A stretch of DNA of 61,770 nucleotides from a virus (lineage: Duplodnaviria > Caudoviricetes): positions 1 to 61,770 of the IMG/VR virus record IMGVR_UViG_3300035438_000760; one strand, written 5' to 3'. Numbering within the stretch: position 1 is the stretch's first letter; the number at the start of each line of letters is the position of its first letter. The position numbers were made by a program, and so were the translations under genes. The notes below the pieces were generated by a model. It was not told where the DNA came from and did no database searches. It saw nothing but the letters and a program-made list of their open reading frames with translations. Shown in pieces: positions 11,572-18,369 of the stretch.

Positions 11572-11870
11572 GTGCAATGAGAAATTTCGTGAAAGGGATG
11601 GGGCATTGCATTGCTCGTGTGAATCATCCCGATGGCACTAGCCGCGTGTATGGTCCTTTTATTTCTGGTGAGTGGTGCCTCCGATGGATGGATCACCAGT
11701 ATGAGGAGGGTTTCACTCGCGGGTTTATTGTTGAGCCATTGCGAACGCCTGATCGGGAGCGGGATTATTCGGCATGGTGGAATCCTGAATCAATTATGAC
11801 CGACGATCATTTCAAGGCTGAGTTTGTGAACTGGGGAAAAGAATCTTTGGAAATGTTCCCTTTGACTTGA
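11568..11870 (+). CDS. Hypothetical protein
   Basis: ATGA-coupled ORF; its stop lies inside the promoter repeat. Confidence 0.55.
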   Translation: MSAMRNFVKGMGHCIARVNHPDGTSRVYGPFISGEWCLRWMDHQYEEGFTRGFIVEPLRTPDRERDYSAWWNPESIMTDDHFKAEFVNWGKESLEMFPLT

Positions 11871-11919
11871 CTGGGGTTTAGTTTTCTGTAAGAATACTTA
11901 TGGAGGGAGAGAGGCTCCC
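11864..11919 (+). promoter_or_regulatory. Repeated promoter plus GGGAG-AGAGG-CTCCC hairpin
   Basis: GACTTGACTGGGGTTTAGTTTTCTGTAAGAAT; the same hairpin follows the 23754 copy. Confidence 0.7.
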
Positions 11920-11936
11920 GCCAGAGAGGGGAAAAG

Positions 11937-12839
11937 ATGACACGCTCATTCACCGCCGACTTATCCAAGTCGGCTCGTCGGGCACACCGTTCCCGCCAGC
12001 AAGCCAAACTGGATGCCAACCGAACGCTGAGCAAGCGGACATTCGGCATTGAGATTGAGTATGTGGGGACTCCGCTCAAGCGTCAAGTAGCCGAAGCCCT
12101 GAGCCTTGCTCTCGGCGAACATGTCCATGTCACGGGCTACCACTCCAACACCTGCTACACCTGCGGTCGCCAAGATGTTGGCTACGGTCAATGGAAAGTT
12201 TGCCATGACGGTTCGCTTGGCGGTCGGGGCTACGGTGCCGACTCCACCACTGGCGAGATTGTCTCTCCTGTCCTAACGGGCGAAGAGGGAATTGACAAAG
12301 TGAAAATCGTACTGGCAACACTCCGAGCGGTCGGTGCGAAAGCCTCCGCCAAGTGCGGGATCCACATCCACGCTGGTGCTAAAGACCTAACCGCCAACGG
12401 ACTACAGCGACTGGTCAAGAACTACGGTCAAGTGCAGGACGAGATCTACACTTGGCTCCCCAGTCGCCGAGCGTCGGGTGTCTACTCACCAAAACTGCGG
12501 ACTCGGAGTCTTGACAGTCTCTACCTCGGAGTCAAGCAATTCAAAGAGCAGGGATACGCTGGAGAACTTGGCTCTAAGTACGCTGGCTTGAACATCAGCC
12601 CGCTCGCCCGAATCGGAACTGTGGAATTCCGCATGCACCAAGGTTCAGTGGATACCAACATCCTCGCTCCTTGGATCCGATTTGTCCTCGGCTTCGTAGA
12701 TAGCCAAGTGGATGACGAGAACTTGGTAGGCACCACGATTCCCACTAACGAATCGGTCTTGACCTACTTAGTTGACGGGAAGTACCTACCCGCCAAGAGT
12801 GCCGAAAAAATTGCCCAGCGTGTCGGTCGCTGGAACTAA
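11937..12839 (+). CDS. Putative amidoligase (COOH-NH2 ligase family)
   Basis: FGIEIE, HDGSL, EIVSPVL, CGIHIH and TVEFR motifs. Confidence 0.85.
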   Translation: MTRSFTADLSKSARRAHRSRQQAKLDANRTLSKRTFGIEIEYVGTPLKRQVAEALSLALGEHVHVTGYHSNTCYTCGRQDVGYGQWKVCHDGSLGGRGYGADSTTGEIVSPVLTGEEGIDKVKIVLATLRAVGAKASAKCGIHIHAGAKDLTANGLQRLVKNYGQVQDEIYTWLPSRRASGVYSPKLRTRSLDSLYLGVKQFKEQGYAGELGSKYAGLNISPLARIGTVEFRMHQGSVDTNILAPWIRFVLGFVDSQVDDENLVGTTIPTNESVLTYLVDGKYLPAKSAEKIAQRVGRWN

Positions 12840-12856
12840 CAGGAGGGAAACAGAAC

Positions 12857-13618
12857 ATGTGCGGAATCTCAGGATTCAGTCTCACCAAGTGCGACGCTAA
12901 GAAAGTTGACAGCAGGATCCTTGCTAGTTGTCTTCTAAAAAACATTGAGCATCGTGGGCGACATGCCACGGGTGCCTCATGGACAGAGACAATGGATGAG
13001 GGTCTGATGTGGTGGTACAGCAAGGCTCCGATCCCAGCATCGGAATTTGACGGTCACCTAGAACAAATGCCAAAGCACACTCGCCGAGCATTGCTCCATG
13101 TACGGTACGCCACCACTGGCGATCCCGAAGATGAGAACAACAACCATCCGATCATCGTGCCATCGTCATCGGGCGGATCGGTCATCGGTGTTCACAACGG
13201 GATCATCAACAACTACCAGCAGATCATGGATGACATTGGTGCCGAATGGATTGGCGAAGTGGACTCTCAAGCCCTTTTCCACCTTGCGGGTACTGAAGAC
13301 TTCACCAAAGAAAAGTTTCGCCAAGTTCAGGGTTCAGCAGCGGTTGCTTATGTTGACACTGCCGAACCGACAACGATCAAACTGGTTCGTATGTCAATGC
13401 GACCCTTGTGGATTGCCCAGACTGAAGACGGCTCAACACTTTGGTCATCAGAGGAAGATGCACTGCTGGATGCCATGAGTGTGGTAGGACTTACAGCAGA
13501 TTTTGTTATGGAGGTTCCCGAATGGACAATGGTTACTATCAACGATGCTCGTCTAGATTCCGTAGAGCAGATTGTTCGCCCTACAGCATTGAGTGGTCAG
13601 ATGGTCATGTTTCGGTAG
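12857..13618 (+). CDS. Class II glutamine amidotransferase (Ntn)
   Basis: MCGI N-terminus, HRG, HVRYAT, NNHP, HNGII and VDS motifs. Confidence 0.9.
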   Translation: MCGISGFSLTKCDAKKVDSRILASCLLKNIEHRGRHATGASWTETMDEGLMWWYSKAPIPASEFDGHLEQMPKHTRRALLHVRYATTGDPEDENNNHPIIVPSSSGGSVIGVHNGIINNYQQIMDDIGAEWIGEVDSQALFHLAGTEDFTKEKFRQVQGSAAVAYVDTAEPTTIKLVRMSMRPLWIAQTEDGSTLWSSEEDALLDAMSVVGLTADFVMEVPEWTMVTINDARLDSVEQIVRPTALSGQMVMFR

Positions 13619-13801
13619 GGCACACTCCCCGACGACTGCTTAAAGGGATCGGGGACATTCAGTTCCCGCCTATGTCGGTCAAAGAGATCAAGATTGAATT
13701 GGCACGACGATGCGAAACCTTGTTGAGTATTGACTGCCCAATATCGGAAGACGATCTTGAATTTCTAGAGTTCTTGGCGAAAGTCGGGTTCATAGATTTT
13801 T

Positions 13802-14263
13802 ATGTTGGATGACTTTTGGGATTCTGCCGTTTGCAAAACGGAGCAAGTCCCGATAGGAATCTTTTTTGGATCTGAAGATGAAAGCCCGCCAGAGCGGACA
13901 CTTAGAATCGCTATGGCTAAATCTATTTGCCAACGATGCGATGTCATTGACGAGTGTTTGCAGATGGCGATCGCAAATGATGAGCGGGGAATCTGGGGAG
14001 GGAAAACCGAGAACGAGCGGTATCGGGGTTCTACCGTCCTAATTTCGGATCCGATGGTACCTGTAGTGCCCGTAGAGCCTGTCGCCAGATCAATTTGGGT
14101 AACCATAGCCGACTCTAATGGGGTAGTGCTACAGATGACTAGGAGGTTCACTCCGATGACATGGCAAATCGTGGTGGACGGCATTGTTCGCTACGAAAAG
14201 TATGTAGAAGGCGAAGCGTGGATCGTTTGGAACAGGGCAGTTGAAAGCAGGATGCGATACTGA
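13802..14263 (+). CDS. whiB: WhiB-family transcription factor with C-terminal extension
   Basis: C...CQRC...C plus GIWGG. Confidence 0.85.
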   Translation: MLDDFWDSAVCKTEQVPIGIFFGSEDESPPERTLRIAMAKSICQRCDVIDECLQMAIANDERGIWGGKTENERYRGSTVLISDPMVPVVPVEPVARSIWVTIADSNGVVLQMTRRFTPMTWQIVVDGIVRYEKYVEGEAWIVWNRAVESRMRY

Positions 14264-14387
14264 TTAGACTCAGACGAGGTTGTTGCCGATCCCCCTCACG
14301 GCGACGACTTAGGAACTCTGAGTGCCTCCTACTCAAGTTTCCAAACGGGCAGTGTCTTTGGCACTGCCCGTTTGCTATTGTGCCACC

Positions 14388-15044
14388 ATGCAAATAGATG
14401 AGGTGGCTATCAATGCGATTACCCGACACCCCAAAAACGCCCGTCAAGGCGAAGTGTCTCGGATCGTGGAATCAATTAAAGCGAACGGGTTCTTTGCCCC
14501 GCTGGTAGTCCAACGGTCAACGGGATTCATTCTGGTGGGCAACCATCGGTATCAAGCCGCGTGTGACACTGGGATGACCACGATCCCCGTTCACTATGTG
14601 GACTGTGACGATGCTCAGGCTCGGCGGATCATGTTGGCGGACAACAAAACCAGTGATCGTGCCAGATATGAGAAAGACATTCTTGCTGAACTGCTCCAAG
14701 AAGCCCTCGGTGACGGTGGACTATTTGGTACAGCGTTTGATCCGTCTGAAGTAGACAAACTGCTACAGGAAGCGTCCGCTGGTGACGCTCCAACGGTTGA
14801 ACAGTTTGATCTCATCCCGTATGAGCGCACCTTTTTTCTGGTCGGGGCACCAATAAGCCTGCATGCGACCATTGCCGATGCATTGGATCGTCTACAAATT
14901 GAACACGAGGAAATTGATTATGAGCATGCCCAAGATTCGTCGGAAGACCCGCCCGTTCTTCAGAGCGAGGAAGGACAAGAACGAGAACTCGCACTTGGAC
15001 GAGAAGGCTTGGTTGAGAGCGGAGACAATTCGCTTGATTGGTAA
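14388..15044 (+). CDS. ParB/Srx N-terminal domain protein
   Basis: HPKNAR...SIKANGF...ILVGNHRYQA...MLADNK. Confidence 0.8.
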   Translation: MQIDEVAINAITRHPKNARQGEVSRIVESIKANGFFAPLVVQRSTGFILVGNHRYQAACDTGMTTIPVHYVDCDDAQARRIMLADNKTSDRARYEKDILAELLQEALGDGGLFGTAFDPSEVDKLLQEASAGDAPTVEQFDLIPYERTFFLVGAPISLHATIADALDRLQIEHEEIDYEHAQDSSEDPPVLQSEEGQERELALGREGLVESGDNSLDW

Positions 15045-15567
15045 ACCTCAGGTGAGCGTCTTGGATGCTTACGCTGGGGAAGGTCATGTGTGGATGCGAA
15101 CTCAAGAGTTGATCCCTGATGTGGTGATCTTGAGGATGGCGATTGAGAAACGCAAAAGTGCTGCGGAGCAGAACGCCATTGTTGGGGACAACATGAAAGT
15201 GCTACCAACTTTGGATCTTCAACAGTTTGATCTGATTGATCTGGACGCTTTCGGTTTTCCGACTGAGCAGATTCGGATCTGTGCTGAGAAGGCTCCGAAT
15301 GTTCCCGTGGTGATGACGGCGATCGCTAACCATTACGCACCAACCCCGTACACGGTCACTGATGCCGTTGGTATTCCTGAGCATTGGCGAAAGGTTGACG
15401 GACCGTATCCGCACATGTTGTTCGCTAAGAAGCGTTGGACATATTGGGAACATTATTTGTGGTCGTTGGGTTATCGGCATGCGACCAGAATTCACATGCC
15501 AGATTTTGGTTACACAAAACGCTATGAAGTGTTGTGGAGTGACGAAGCATGGGCTAAAGTGCAGTAA
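14920..15567 (+). CDS. SAM-dependent methyltransferase-fold protein
   Basis: VLDAYAGEG motif I; FDLIDLDAFGFP. Confidence 0.65.
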   Translation: MSMPKIRRKTRPFFRARKDKNENSHLDEKAWLRAETIRLIGKPQVSVLDAYAGEGHVWMRTQELIPDVVILRMAIEKRKSAAEQNAIVGDNMKVLPTLDLQQFDLIDLDAFGFPTEQIRICAEKAPNVPVVMTAIANHYAPTPYTVTDAVGIPEHWRKVDGPYPHMLFAKKRWTYWEHYLWSLGYRHATRIHMPDFGYTKRYEVLWSDEAWAKVQ

Positions 15568-15757
15568 CAATTTTGTTGAGAGGGGTTTAAATGGAGACAG
15601 TTAAGACAGCAGTTGCCGAATTAAATGACCGACAAATTTTGGTCATGTTTTTTGAAGACGGAACTTTGCACATTGCTGAACGAGAGAATTCGTGGGACAC
15701 ATGGGGTCGCCCTGTGTACACGCAATTTGCAACAATGGGCGAAAGCACAAAACACTG

Positions 15758-16855
15758 ATGCGATTCATTGAACTGTTTGCTGGAATCGGAGCGTTCAGAC
15801 TTGGCTTAGAAAACACTGGGCACGAATGTGTCTGGGCAAACGAGTGGTTGCCTAAACCACGAAGCATTTATACACACAATTTCGGAGAGGAACCCGATGG
15901 ACGAGACATTACAACTGTTCAACATGGAGACATCCCAGAAGCCGACCTCATTTGTGGAGGATTTCCTTGTGCCACTTTTAGCATTGCTGGAAGAAGATCA
16001 GGATTTTCGCTGGACGACACCAGAGGCACACTCGCTTTTGAAATGTTTAGGCTCGCTAGGGATAAAAGAATTCCATACATCCTCTTTGAGAATGTCAAAG
16101 GACTACTCAACCACGATGCAGGAAGAACATTCCAAATTATCCTCGGTGTCTTGGATGCGATGGGGTATGACTCACAATGGGAACTGCTTGACAGCCAAAA
16201 CTTTGGAGTCCCGCAACACAGAGAGCGCATCTTCCTTGTCGCAAATCTTAGAGGACACCCCAGACCCAAAGTATTTCCTATCGGAAGAACGGAGCAATGC
16301 GATGATGAACCGATCCAAAGTGAAGAAGGGATCCAAGTCGCCCAGTGGCGACGAGGCTATTTCCGCACCTACCGATCAAATGGTGTTCCCACTCTGACGG
16401 CAAATATGGGGCTTGGTGGCAACAATGTCCCCTATGTGACAGGACGCGTCCCTCGTGATGTAGATGTGTTTCCAACATTGGACGGTCACTATTGGAAAGG
16501 GATCCAAAACAATCAAGGTCGTGGGGCAGTCAGATCAATTGTCCGTCCCGTTTTGGATGTCAACCGTTTAAGCAAAGGTTTGAATGGGCGAATGATTAAA
16601 GATGACAACGACCCGATGTATACGATCACCGCTCAGGATCGTCACGGGGTTTATCTTGACGACGGCGAAAAAAGTCGGATCCGCAAGTTGACACCATTGG
16701 AATGCGAAAGACTTCAAGGGTTACCTGATGGGTGGACAGAATTTTACGCTGACGGCAAAAAAGTTTCTGACTCAGAACGCTACGAGCGGTGTGGACGGAC
16801 GATCACAATTCAAGTGGTAGAGGCAATAGGGAGAAGGTTGTATGACTTCTGGTAA
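15758..16855 (+). CDS. DNA (cytosine-5) methyltransferase family, candidate carboxymethyltransferase
   Basis: LFAGIG, GGFPC, ENVKG, QHRER and LTPLECERLQG; motif X reads CGRT instead of GN[SA]. Confidence 0.9.
   Translation: MRFIELFAGIGAFRLGLENTGHECVWANEWLPKPRSIYTHNFGEEPDGRDITTVQHGDIPEADLICGGFPCATFSIAGRRSGFSLDDTRGTLAFEMFRLARDKRIPYILFENVKGLLNHDAGRTFQIILGVLDAMGYDSQWELLDSQNFGVPQHRERIFLVANLRGHPRPKVFPIGRTEQCDDEPIQSEEGIQVAQWRRGYFRTYRSNGVPTLTANMGLGGNNVPYVTGRVPRDVDVFPTLDGHYWKGIQNNQGRGAVRSIVRPVLDVNRLSKGLNGRMIKDDNDPMYTITAQDRHGVYLDDGEKSRIRKLTPLECERLQGLPDGWTEFYADGKKVSDSERYERCGRTITIQVVEAIGRRLYDFW
15828..16397 (+). CDS. Alternate-frame ORF nested in the MTase (possible beta-subunit-like polypeptide)
   Basis: 189-codon +1-frame ORF containing WGMTHNG...SLSQILE...KYFLS. 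Confidence 0.4.
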   Translation: MSGQTSGCLNHEAFIHTISERNPMDETLQLFNMETSQKPTSFVEDFLVPLLALLEEDQDFRWTTPEAHSLLKCLGSLGIKEFHTSSLRMSKDYSTTMQEEHSKLSSVSWMRWGMTHNGNCLTAKTLESRNTESASSLSQILEDTPDPKYFLSEERSNAMMNRSKVKKGSKSPSGDEAISAPTDQMVFPL

Positions 16856-17507
16856 TTTTTCGTTTGACACAATTCAAAATTTTGACCAACACATCCGTAA
16901 TTCAATACCTAACTACGATCTGTTGTTTGACGCTGTTGTGTCAGTATCAAAATTTTTCAGTGACCCTGAAGCAACAATGATTGATGTTGGCTGTTCAACT
17001 GGACAAATGTTGGACGCTATGCCTCACACTGGATTAAAAATTGGGGTAGATCAGTCAGCAAACCTTTTGCCTATGGTTTCTGACGGGTCAACCATGTTTA
17101 AACATAGCGATATCCGTGATTTTAACTTTTTGGAGTACGGAAAAACTTGTTTTGTCACTTCAATTTTTACTCTTCAATTCTTACCGTTCAACGATCGCTA
17201 CAAAATACTGGTGGATATTTATCAGTCACTAAAAGCAGGTGGCGGATTTTTGTGGGCAGAAAAAGTGACATGCGAACACGGCAACGATCAAGATCTAATG
17301 ACTTTTGCCCATTACGATTTTAAACGCAGATCGTTTTCTGCTGAACAAATTCTTCGCAAGGAAGAAGATTTGCGTGGGCTTATGCATTGCAACACAAGCA
17401 ACGGTAACCACCAGTTAGCCCGTCAAGCAGGTTTTGGTGACGGTTTGTTGGTGTGGAAATTTTTTAATTTTGAATGTTACTTATATCGCAAATCGTTTGA
17501 CCGATGA
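16842..17507 (+). CDS. CmoA-like (carboxy-SAM synthase-like) protein
   Basis: FSFD...FDQHIRNSIPNY, DVGCSTG, FTLQFL, AEK and HYDFKR match the CmoA pattern. Confidence 0.75.
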   Translation: MTSGNFSFDTIQNFDQHIRNSIPNYDLLFDAVVSVSKFFSDPEATMIDVGCSTGQMLDAMPHTGLKIGVDQSANLLPMVSDGSTMFKHSDIRDFNFLEYGKTCFVTSIFTLQFLPFNDRYKILVDIYQSLKAGGGFLWAEKVTCEHGNDQDLMTFAHYDFKRRSFSAEQILRKEEDLRGLMHCNTSNGNHQLARQAGFGDGLLVWKFFNFECYLYRKSFDR

Positions 17508-17803
17508 ATTGGCGTGAAGTTAGATTTAAAACAGGTGAGTTAGCAGGGTTAAACATTTACATTGAGGAGGAAATTATGGGTTACGAAGATTCGGGTGCAT
17601 GCCCGCTATGCCATGTTGGATGTTTGGATGAGTGTGAGTCAGATTGTTTGTCTCGTGATCTTGTCTTCAGGCGATTTGTCAGAGTGGGCAACGAATTGAA
17701 ATTAGCGTTGGAATTGATGATGCGAACTTTGCCCTCTCGTGACGATCGGATTCGTATGGAGGAAACCATTGACGAATGGAAATTTATGGCTGGTTCACTG
17801 TGA
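17504..17803 (+). CDS. Hypothetical Cys-rich protein
   Basis: ATGA coupling; CPLC...C...C. Confidence 0.5.
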   Translation: MNWREVRFKTGELAGLNIYIEEEIMGYEDSGACPLCHVGCLDECESDCLSRDLVFRRFVRVGNELKLALELMMRTLPSRDDRIRMEETIDEWKFMAGSL

Positions 17804-18369
17804 GTACCTTGATTAGTATCACGATTGCCGTCATCGCAATTATTTTGACTGAGATTTTTGTTCGTCGCATGTTCAAAGATGACTGATGGATAGCCACAAG
17901 CACCACAAACCGCTTTTGTGTACCAGATGCGATCAACCGATTGGTTGGGCATGGGGTTTCACGGACACGGGACAGAAGTTTGGATATTTGAAATGTCACG
18001 AATGTGAGGGAGGTCAGGATGAGTGAGCAGAAAACTTTTTCGCACCGTTTGATTGTTGCTGATATGGCTGATGCTATTTGTCGTGTGTGTGATGTGTGTG
18101 GTTCGGCTCCGAATGTTCAGCAGGTTCGGTTGAGTTGGTTGTTTCCTACTCGTAAAGGGTTGGAGATCAGTTGCCCGAATGGTCCGCATGAGTTGGTGGA
18201 TCTATGAGTAAGCAGGCGTGGGTTTGTTGTGATGCTGTTAAGCCTGTCGGGTTTACTTACTATCTGAATGTGACGGTGTGTGATGTGTGTTTCACAAAGT
18301 TCCCGTACTATGACTGCTTTTGTGAGTTGGTACATGAGTGTGTGCCAAATAAATGGTTGGAGGGAAGCA

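Follow-up and report, generated by a model that had tools for sequence, protein, structure and literature searches.

Natural carboxymethylation of cytosine in DNA has been published for Synechococcus phage S-B43 (Yang et al., Nat Commun, December 2025; PMC12783734), so this kind of system is no longer new. In that phage, CmoA makes carboxy-S-adenosylmethionine (Cx-SAM) and has roughly ten times the kcat of the E. coli enzyme; the transferase SpCmoX, for which Cx-SAM is the only accepted cofactor, writes 5-carboxymethylcytosine (5cxmC) at GC sites; and CmoY, an asparagine synthetase homologue, ligates glycine to the carboxyl group of 5cxmC (PMC12783734). The crystal structure of SpCmoX shows that Arg350 replaces Asn304 of the HhaI methyltransferase (M.HhaI) and contacts the carboxymethyl group of Cx-SAM; the R350N variant is inactive (PMC12783734). 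Here we describe a pair of overlapping genes in an IMG/VR phage record (IMGVR_UViG_3300035438_000760) of 61,770 bp, rated complete, the whole of which was analyzed and is called the window. An earlier note on this DNA had proposed, from the precedent of the engineered M.MpeI N374K, that the pair writes 5cxmC. In our analysis the pair is very probably a self-contained, exchangeable 5cxmC cassette of an uncultured actinobacterial phage, with a transferase lineage separate from that of SpCmoX.

The published census of such enzymes selected 5,615 candidate CmoX proteins by SPPC (S95-P96-P97-C98) together with R350; among their contigs, 4,257 carry CmoA, 2,251 a ligase and 1,660 a ParBc protein (PMC12783734). 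The words amidoligase, glutamine synthetase, actino-, Mycobacter- and Streptomyces are absent from the main text of that paper, and a literature search on carboxymethylcytosine and CmoX found no natural system besides that of S-B43. Related activities have also been engineered. In two reports (PMC13288465, PMC12015181), M.MpeI and M.CviPI gain the use of Cx-SAM from Lys or Arg at the pocket position, and a pocket substitution raises Cx-SAM use by M.MedI, the wild type of which is weakly active.

The pair and its key residues lie as follows.

15758-16855, + strand: CmoX-like DNA cytosine C5-(carboxy)methyltransferase homologue, 365 aa, with an M.HhaI-like catalytic domain
15968-15973, + strand: motif IV catalytic Cys71 and Ala72 (P-C-A, canonical P-C-Q replaced), from motif reading
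16784-16798, + strand: motif X signature E-R-C-G-R; Arg347 is CGG at 16796-16798
16842-17507, + strand: CmoA-like carboxy-SAM synthase homologue, 221 aa, overlapping the CmoX-like gene by 14 nt
17358-17375, + strand: K173-E-E-D-L-R178 of the CmoA homologue, aligned with K-R-S-M-L-E of E. coli CmoA

In profile searches, the transferase matched PF00145 over its full length (E = 5.5e-70) and TIGR00675 (dcm) with E = 2e-74. We prefer ATG at 15758 over an upstream GTG at 15692 as its start because relatives align from residue 1, and also because the indel that distinguishes a sister phage, described below, begins at 15751. The enzyme keeps the C5-methyltransferase motifs, among them motif I, Cys71 (motif IV), Glu111 of ENV (motif VI), and Arg155 and Arg157 of RxR (motif VIII). 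The signature of a canonical 5-methylcytosine (5mC) writer, P-C-Q with G-N, is replaced by P-C-A with G-R: motif IV reads G-F-P-C-A, with Ala where Gln is usual after the catalytic Cys, and motif X reads R-Y-E-R-C-G-R-T-I in full. The Asn-to-Arg change in motif X that the earlier note had placed at the CGG codon at 16796 is borne out by both the codon and the alignment. The residue equivalence with M.HhaI likewise holds, as Arg347 sits under Asn304 in the HMMER alignment (q-f-g-N-s-v against r-c-g-R-t-i). Arg347 is also the motif counterpart of Arg350 in SpCmoX, which lies within E-R-V-G-R in a protein with SPPC at 95-98. The best PDB match by sequence is M.HhaI (9.2e-50), with SpCmoX (8YF3) at only 1.4e-10, and a Foldseek search with the predicted transferase structure placed HhaI first (1.2e-20) and 8YF3 at rank 18, which confirms the catalytic domain only.

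The earlier note's description of the overlapping reading frame as CmoA-like proved correct. E. coli and Haemophilus CmoA structures (4GEK/1IM8) match the protein at 1.3e-15, E. coli CmoA over residues 4-217, and the PHROG family phrog_4752 matches at 5.7e-51. Most relevant to function, the protein is 34% identical over residues 5-206 to the active SpCmoA (E = 2e-39).

Several observations weigh against assigning the pair to 5cxmC synthesis. The CmoA homologue falls below the 193.3-bit equivalog cut-off of TIGR00740 (84.4 bits, 9.7e-24) and below the cut-off of 285 of NF011995 (62.6 bits); both models were built on bacterial CmoA of the tRNA pathway. The transferase fails the literal SPPC criterion of PMC12783734, and in its AlphaFold2 model, where the catalytic domain is confident, the target-recognition region (approximately residues 177-299) is not modeled, the predicted local distance difference test score (pLDDT) being below 50. 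Predicting target specificity from this structure was abandoned on account of that score across residues 177-299. Finally, R199 of E. coli CmoA binds the carboxylate of the cofactor (PMC3663124), and in an alignment of E. coli CmoA, SpCmoA, the window protein and three relatives, the R199 column holds Glu174 in the window protein. The column of E. coli E203 is occupied by Arg178, four residues on from the R199 column, so that Arg and Glu are swapped one helical turn apart. Since the active SpCmoA has the same swap, reading K-E-K-E-L-R at this site, the missing Arg at the R199 column need not argue against activity. The earlier note's caution that KEEDLR stands in place of the catalytic KR thereby falls away. 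K-E-x-x-L-R is common to all five phage CmoA proteins aligned with E. coli CmoA, and K-E-x-D-L-R predominates, going by the common variants listed, among the aligned CmoA sequences of the window lineage. We infer that Arg178 takes over the role of E. coli R199.

Other features of phage CmoA homologues were also seen. There are two types, one with the E. coli-like K-R...L-E (Pseudomonas phage PaBG; L183:6950-7726) and one with the swapped K-E...L-R (S-B43 and the window lineage). The window gene for the CmoA homologue has a G+C content of 39.2%, against 48.0% for both the genome and the transferase gene. In Alcaligenes phage Afa-NA1 (L167), tblastn with both transferase types found no C5-methyltransferase in the 8 kb to either side of the CmoA homologue, near which adenine methylases are annotated.

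To examine conservation, we scanned IMG/VR and found 144 stretches encoding relatives of the transferase, of which the best 80 (62-79% identity) were kept; together with the window these make a lineage set of 81. Motif IV reads GFPCA and motif X has G-R in 81/81 sequences, and the catalytic Cys, the ENV Glu and the RxR Arg are kept in 80-81 of the 81. The start of a CmoA-like match and the end of the transferase gene are no more than a few bases apart in 79 of the 80 related loci, and the one locus without such a match (L029) ends 78 nt after the transferase. We also took the 150 nearest representatives at 50% identity out of 1.84 billion proteins. Of these, 143 had a readable motif X: 130 combine PCQ with GN, eight carry G-R, and the remainder are single cases (PCA+GN, PCQ+GM, PCQ+GD, PCP+GN and PCP+GL). 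PCA is found in 6/6 of the G-R representatives with readable motif IV, the motif not being covered in the other two, and three PCA-bearing fragments lack the C-terminus. Given the 81/81 conservation and the covariation of G-R with PCA as against GN with PCQ, the signature is more than chance.

Two sequences in these sets stand apart. The long multi-domain protein P0006 (1146 aa) is the sole case among the nearest 150 to combine PCA with a canonical G-N. At L069:7094-7630, the gene after an Arg-type transferase shares just 22% identity with the window CmoA homologue, and a Pfam search at E 0.01 gave no match for it; this partner may be a very divergent or replaced CmoA.

The linkage data bear on an alternative in which the pair would be an ordinary 5mC methyltransferase beside an unrelated small-molecule or RNA methyltransferase, the Arg being a neutral quirk of the lineage. 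Scores of the CmoA homologue below curated family cut-offs would allow this, as would the abundance of C5-methyltransferases in phages (1630 phage records match). We nevertheless regard it as extremely improbable, because Arg, PCA and CmoA adjacency occur together in 79/80 loci across 62-79% identity, the nearest GN enzymes carry PCQ, the two genes move as one unit, and the same Arg is the Cx-SAM contact in the SpCmoX crystal structure (PMC12783734). It is also very unlikely that the CmoA homologue mainly depletes host SAM (S-adenosylmethionine) as a counter-defense, with DNA modification secondary. This possibility was raised in the Discussion of PMC12783734; it would leave the strict pairing with an Arg-type transferase unexplained, and it is compatible with a 5cxmC cassette rather than exclusive of it. 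The earlier note's reading of the two genes as a 5cxmC-writing pair is supported by Arg347, the linkage to CmoA, the 34% identity to SpCmoA and the precedent of S-B43.

In the proposed mechanism, the CmoA homologue would convert SAM and host prephenate to Cx-SAM. The transferase would flip out the target cytosine, Cys71 would attack C6, and the carboxymethyl group of Cx-SAM would be transferred to C5, with Arg347 pairing with the carboxylate of the cofactor. The predicted product is 5cxmC, which would most likely serve as protection against host restriction. Because no CmoY-type ligase is encoded, 5cxmC is probably the final mark; a search of the whole 61,770-bp record for the asparagine synthase family of CmoY (PF00733) gave no match.

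Some 5mC could possibly be made as well, since engineered Lys and Arg variants still use SAM. In its strongest form, this idea would make the window enzyme a mixed writer that uses both SAM and Cx-SAM and leaves a 5mC/5cxmC mixture in the DNA, with the phage CmoA only shifting the ratio. Methylation from SAM is kept by M.CviPI Y205K/R and M.MedI N377K, and SAM is reported to be approximately 400-fold more abundant than Cx-SAM in E. coli (PMC13288465, PMC12015181). However, the natural enzyme SpCmoX took only Cx-SAM (PMC12783734), and the presence in 81/81 lineage sequences of the Arg, of E-R at positions -4/-3 and of the loss of the motif IV Gln suggests that the pocket was remodeled for a larger cofactor. 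We therefore consider a mixed writer unlikely and favor a dedicated 5cxmC transferase.

A different pocket residue was seen in two Staphylococcus phages, SPbeta-like (L164:7968-9667) and vB-SscS-F1 (L166:7974-10492), in which CmoA lies beside a P-C-Q C5-methyltransferase with an apparent Gly at the motif X position (V-V-G-G-V-I, by motif match, not alignment). In F1, a CmoY-like gene with 35% identity to SpCmoY lies between CmoA and the transferase. This Gly type may represent a third way of shaping the pocket for Cx-SAM.

Comparison with a close relative of the window phage delimits the cassette.

15751-17504, no strand assigned: two-gene CmoX-CmoA cassette as a unit, 1754 bp absent from the collinear sister phage L083

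By blastn, window positions 11864-15750 correspond to L083 9928-13814 at 94.4% identity, and collinearity resumes at window 17505-18040, which corresponds to L083 13825-14359. The 1754 bp comprise exactly the two genes, and the junction alignment shows approximately 10 bp in their place in L083. Both ends of the cassette carry stop/start overlaps, TGATG at 15756-15760 and ATGA at 17504-17507. CmoX-CmoA thus behaves as one exchangeable unit, gained or lost between 94%-identical phages. About 0.5 kb past the empty site, L083 has a 1.1-kb insert (L083:14324-15475) without a counterpart at window 18025-18040. The insert encodes a PF01555 N6/N4 DNA methylase (9.2e-43), and no PF01555 gene is found anywhere in the window phage. 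The site looks like a hot spot for the swapping of alternative DNA-modification genes. Low G+C was considered as a sign of recent acquisition and discarded: the cassette has 44.8% against 48.0% for the genome, yet 14% of equal-size windows are as low.

All genes in the 11.9-17.8 kb region of the window lie on the + strand, and those around the pair are listed here.

11937-12839, + strand: Amidoligase_2 protein (PF12224, 1.9e-28)
12857-13618, + strand: class-II glutamine amidotransferase (GATase) domain protein
13802-14263, + strand: WhiB
14322-15044, + strand: ParB N-terminal-domain protein (PF02195, 2.8e-08)
~15013-15567, + strand: family-less gene, here orfU; open reading frame (ORF) open from 14863
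Between orfU and the transferase gene, + strand: 55-codon ORF
From 17504, + strand: 99-codon ORF directly after the CmoA homologue

The first two of these genes bear on whether 5cxmC might be an intermediate only. In this alternative, Amidoligase_2 and the GATase would replace CmoY and convert the mark to 5-carbamoylmethylcytosine or an amino-acid amide. Both genes are on the same strand and within 4 kb of the cassette (3 kb upstream), and the chemistry fits, with an ATP-dependent carboxyl-amine ligase and an ammonia donor. Moreover, a glutamine-dependent ligase class has been predicted for some CmoX clusters (PMC12783734), and the block neighbors CmoX-CmoA in one related locus (L025) and partly in another (L005). 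To our knowledge, 5-carbamoylmethylcytosine (or another amide of this kind) is a base not yet described in DNA. If amidation did occur, it would represent a non-homologous replacement of CmoY, with CmoX-CmoA acting as a plug-in that feeds a pre-existing amidation module.

The neighborhood counts led us to reject, as the main reading, that amidoligase and GATase are the missing ligase. Close relatives of the amidoligase are few, with 11 clusters at 43-94% identity before a drop to ≤35%, and a CmoA match was found in 0/81 amidoligase loci, these having been found with the window amidoligase or its profile; conversely, one of the 80 CmoX loci (L025) has an amidoligase. The block Amidoligase_2-GATase-WhiB-ParB_N-orfU recurs in the same order in L083, L086, L087, L089, L092 and L025, with identities down to 30-50%. 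Five of these loci have the whole block without CmoX-CmoA: L083, L089 and L092, with 5-7 kb of downstream flank, and L086 and L087, with 1.7-1.8 kb. The sister phage L083 retains the block at 94-99% identity without the cassette. As both genes also occur without the pair, they are probably unrelated to it, and we judge amidation of the mark very improbable; 5cxmC itself remains the favored end product. A CmoY-like match was found in only one of the 80 related loci (L080): a fragment at a contig edge (L080:9-536), just upstream of the transferase, with 30-32% identity to SpCmoY and the F1 protein. As judged from this locus, some members of the window's transferase lineage may hypermodify.

The ParB-domain gene is recurrent genomic company of CmoX-CmoA. 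Of the 59 loci with ≥500 nt of flank, 43 have a ParB homologue downstream of CmoA, at a distance of ≤1.5 kb, and the ParB N-terminal-domain gene persists in the cassette-less L083. For orfU, no Pfam, NCBIfam or PHROG match was found. Its predicted structure (pLDDT 88) has a Rossmann SAM-methyltransferase fold, with Trm1 as the top PDB hit (2.1e-05, TM-score approximately 0.47). Because its relatives (24 clusters) are 175-220 aa long, its true start is probably near 15013, overlapping the end of the ParB ORF. We set orfU aside as a second user of Cx-SAM: it stays in phages without CmoA and travels with ParB, not with CmoA.

The earlier note's 'probable actinophage' is supported by the rest of the genome. 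The phage has two WhiB genes, and among 14 control genomes the WhiB family matches only Corynebacterium; the terminase is closest to those of Arthrobacter phages, at 52-53% identity. A CmoA match is absent from the single actinobacterial control genome (n=1), which fits with the phage bringing its own cofactor synthase. Searches of the phage found no CmoB and no other C5 or N6/N4 methylase, and a tRNA scan of the window found no tRNA genes. Megablast of positions 12800-17900 against 50,697 phage records gave no near-identical match.

We next consider how the window transferase is related to SpCmoX. The two align over the N-terminal 186 residues only (29% identity, E = 6e-17). A tree was built from 56 rows: the window, six loci, 36 representatives and 13 phage enzymes from named records. 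The window-type sequences form a clade (Shimodaira-Hasegawa-like approximate likelihood ratio support 100) nested in a 97-supported clade with 31 PCQ/GN representatives. SpCmoX groups elsewhere, in a clade (support 97) of SPPC enzymes that have G-M or G-L, beyond several GN enzymes. A single clade of Arg types was rejected by the approximately unbiased (AU) test (delta lnL 128, p-AU 3e-71), and two state changes are needed. Motif columns were kept in the tree, which, if anything, favors grouping of the Arg types. The window transferase thus appears, by these sequence comparisons, to have evolved from an ordinary M.HhaI-like methyltransferase separately from SpCmoX.

Some choices in the tree lessen the force of this result. 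Sampling was limited, the 36 representatives (of 150) being those among P0001-P0060 that are 300-470 aa long, and the 19 non-representative sequences besides the window were hand-picked. The search was quick, and the clade for the AU test was specified only once the first tree was known. The C-terminal fragment of a 711-aa Erwinia phage protein formed an extreme long branch in the first tree and was excluded from the second. In addition, E-R-x-G-R is common to the window type, SpCmoX, the PaBG enzyme and an Erwinia jumbo phage enzyme, the non-Arg relatives of these enzymes reading Y-K-x-x-G-N or Y-x-x-G-M. The shared signature seems to reflect convergence on one pocket design, with C-terminal recombination as a possible alternative.

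What is new here is that natural Arg-type transferases seem to have a second lineage of independent origin, one that the published SPPC definition does not cover and that is common in uncultured phages of the WhiB-encoding type. Nature appears to have derived DNA carboxymethyltransferases from different methyltransferase stocks on at least two occasions, each time with the same E-R-x-G-R pocket signature, to which the window lineage adds the change of the motif IV Gln to Ala. This suggests that a few portable changes would switch a C5-methyltransferase from SAM to Cx-SAM, which could be useful for engineering sequencing enzymes with new specificities. Because the published census selected by SPPC, which is absent from the window lineage, it may undercount 5cxmC modification; IMG/VR contains at least 144 stretches of this lineage. 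Finally, the sister phages provide a natural pair with and without the cassette for studying 5cxmC protection in actinobacterial hosts, bearing in mind that L083 has an N6/N4 methylase nearby.

Among known systems, E. coli CmoA (4GEK/4IWN; PMC3663124) resembles the window CmoA homologue in fold, in SAM-binding motifs and in near full-length alignment. It differs in the R199 column, which holds Glu in the window protein with Arg four residues later. The window phage also has no CmoB partner, and the presumed client is DNA rather than tRNA. M.HhaI (e.g. PDB 1MHT) is closest to the transferase by both sequence and structure and shares motif I, the motif IV Cys, ENV of motif VI and RxR of motif VIII. 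In the window enzyme, however, N304 is replaced by Arg, the Gln after the catalytic Cys by Ala and the Lys at -4 by Glu; its target-recognition domain does not align with that of M.HhaI, and its gene is linked to CmoA.

The engineered enzymes M.MpeI N374K, M.MedI N377K and M.CviPI Y205K/R likewise place a cationic side chain in this part of the pocket, at the equivalent position. These are single laboratory substitutions with SAM use retained, whereas the window enzyme has a natural Arg, further conserved changes and its own gene for cofactor synthesis. In Pseudomonas phage PaBG (KF147891.1), ParB, CmoX, CmoA, a hypothetical gene and asparagine synthase lie in a row. PaBG thus shares with the window a ParB-domain gene, an Arg-type transferase (E-R-L-G-R) and CmoA. 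Its transferase is of the SPPC type, with 34% identity to SpCmoX and only 25% over 188 residues to the window enzyme; K-R...L-E, as in E. coli, is retained in its CmoA, and the phage also has a CmoY-like gene.

The S-B43 system is like the window pair in having a CmoA of the same K-E-x-x-L-R type (34% identity) and a ParB-domain gene nearby. The window pair has no CmoY ligase, and its genes overlap in the order CmoX then CmoA. The two transferases belong to different C5-methyltransferase subfamilies, with motif IV reading GFPCA in the window and SPPCS in SpCmoX, and the phages differ in host, that of S-B43 being cyanobacterial and that of the window phage actinobacterial.

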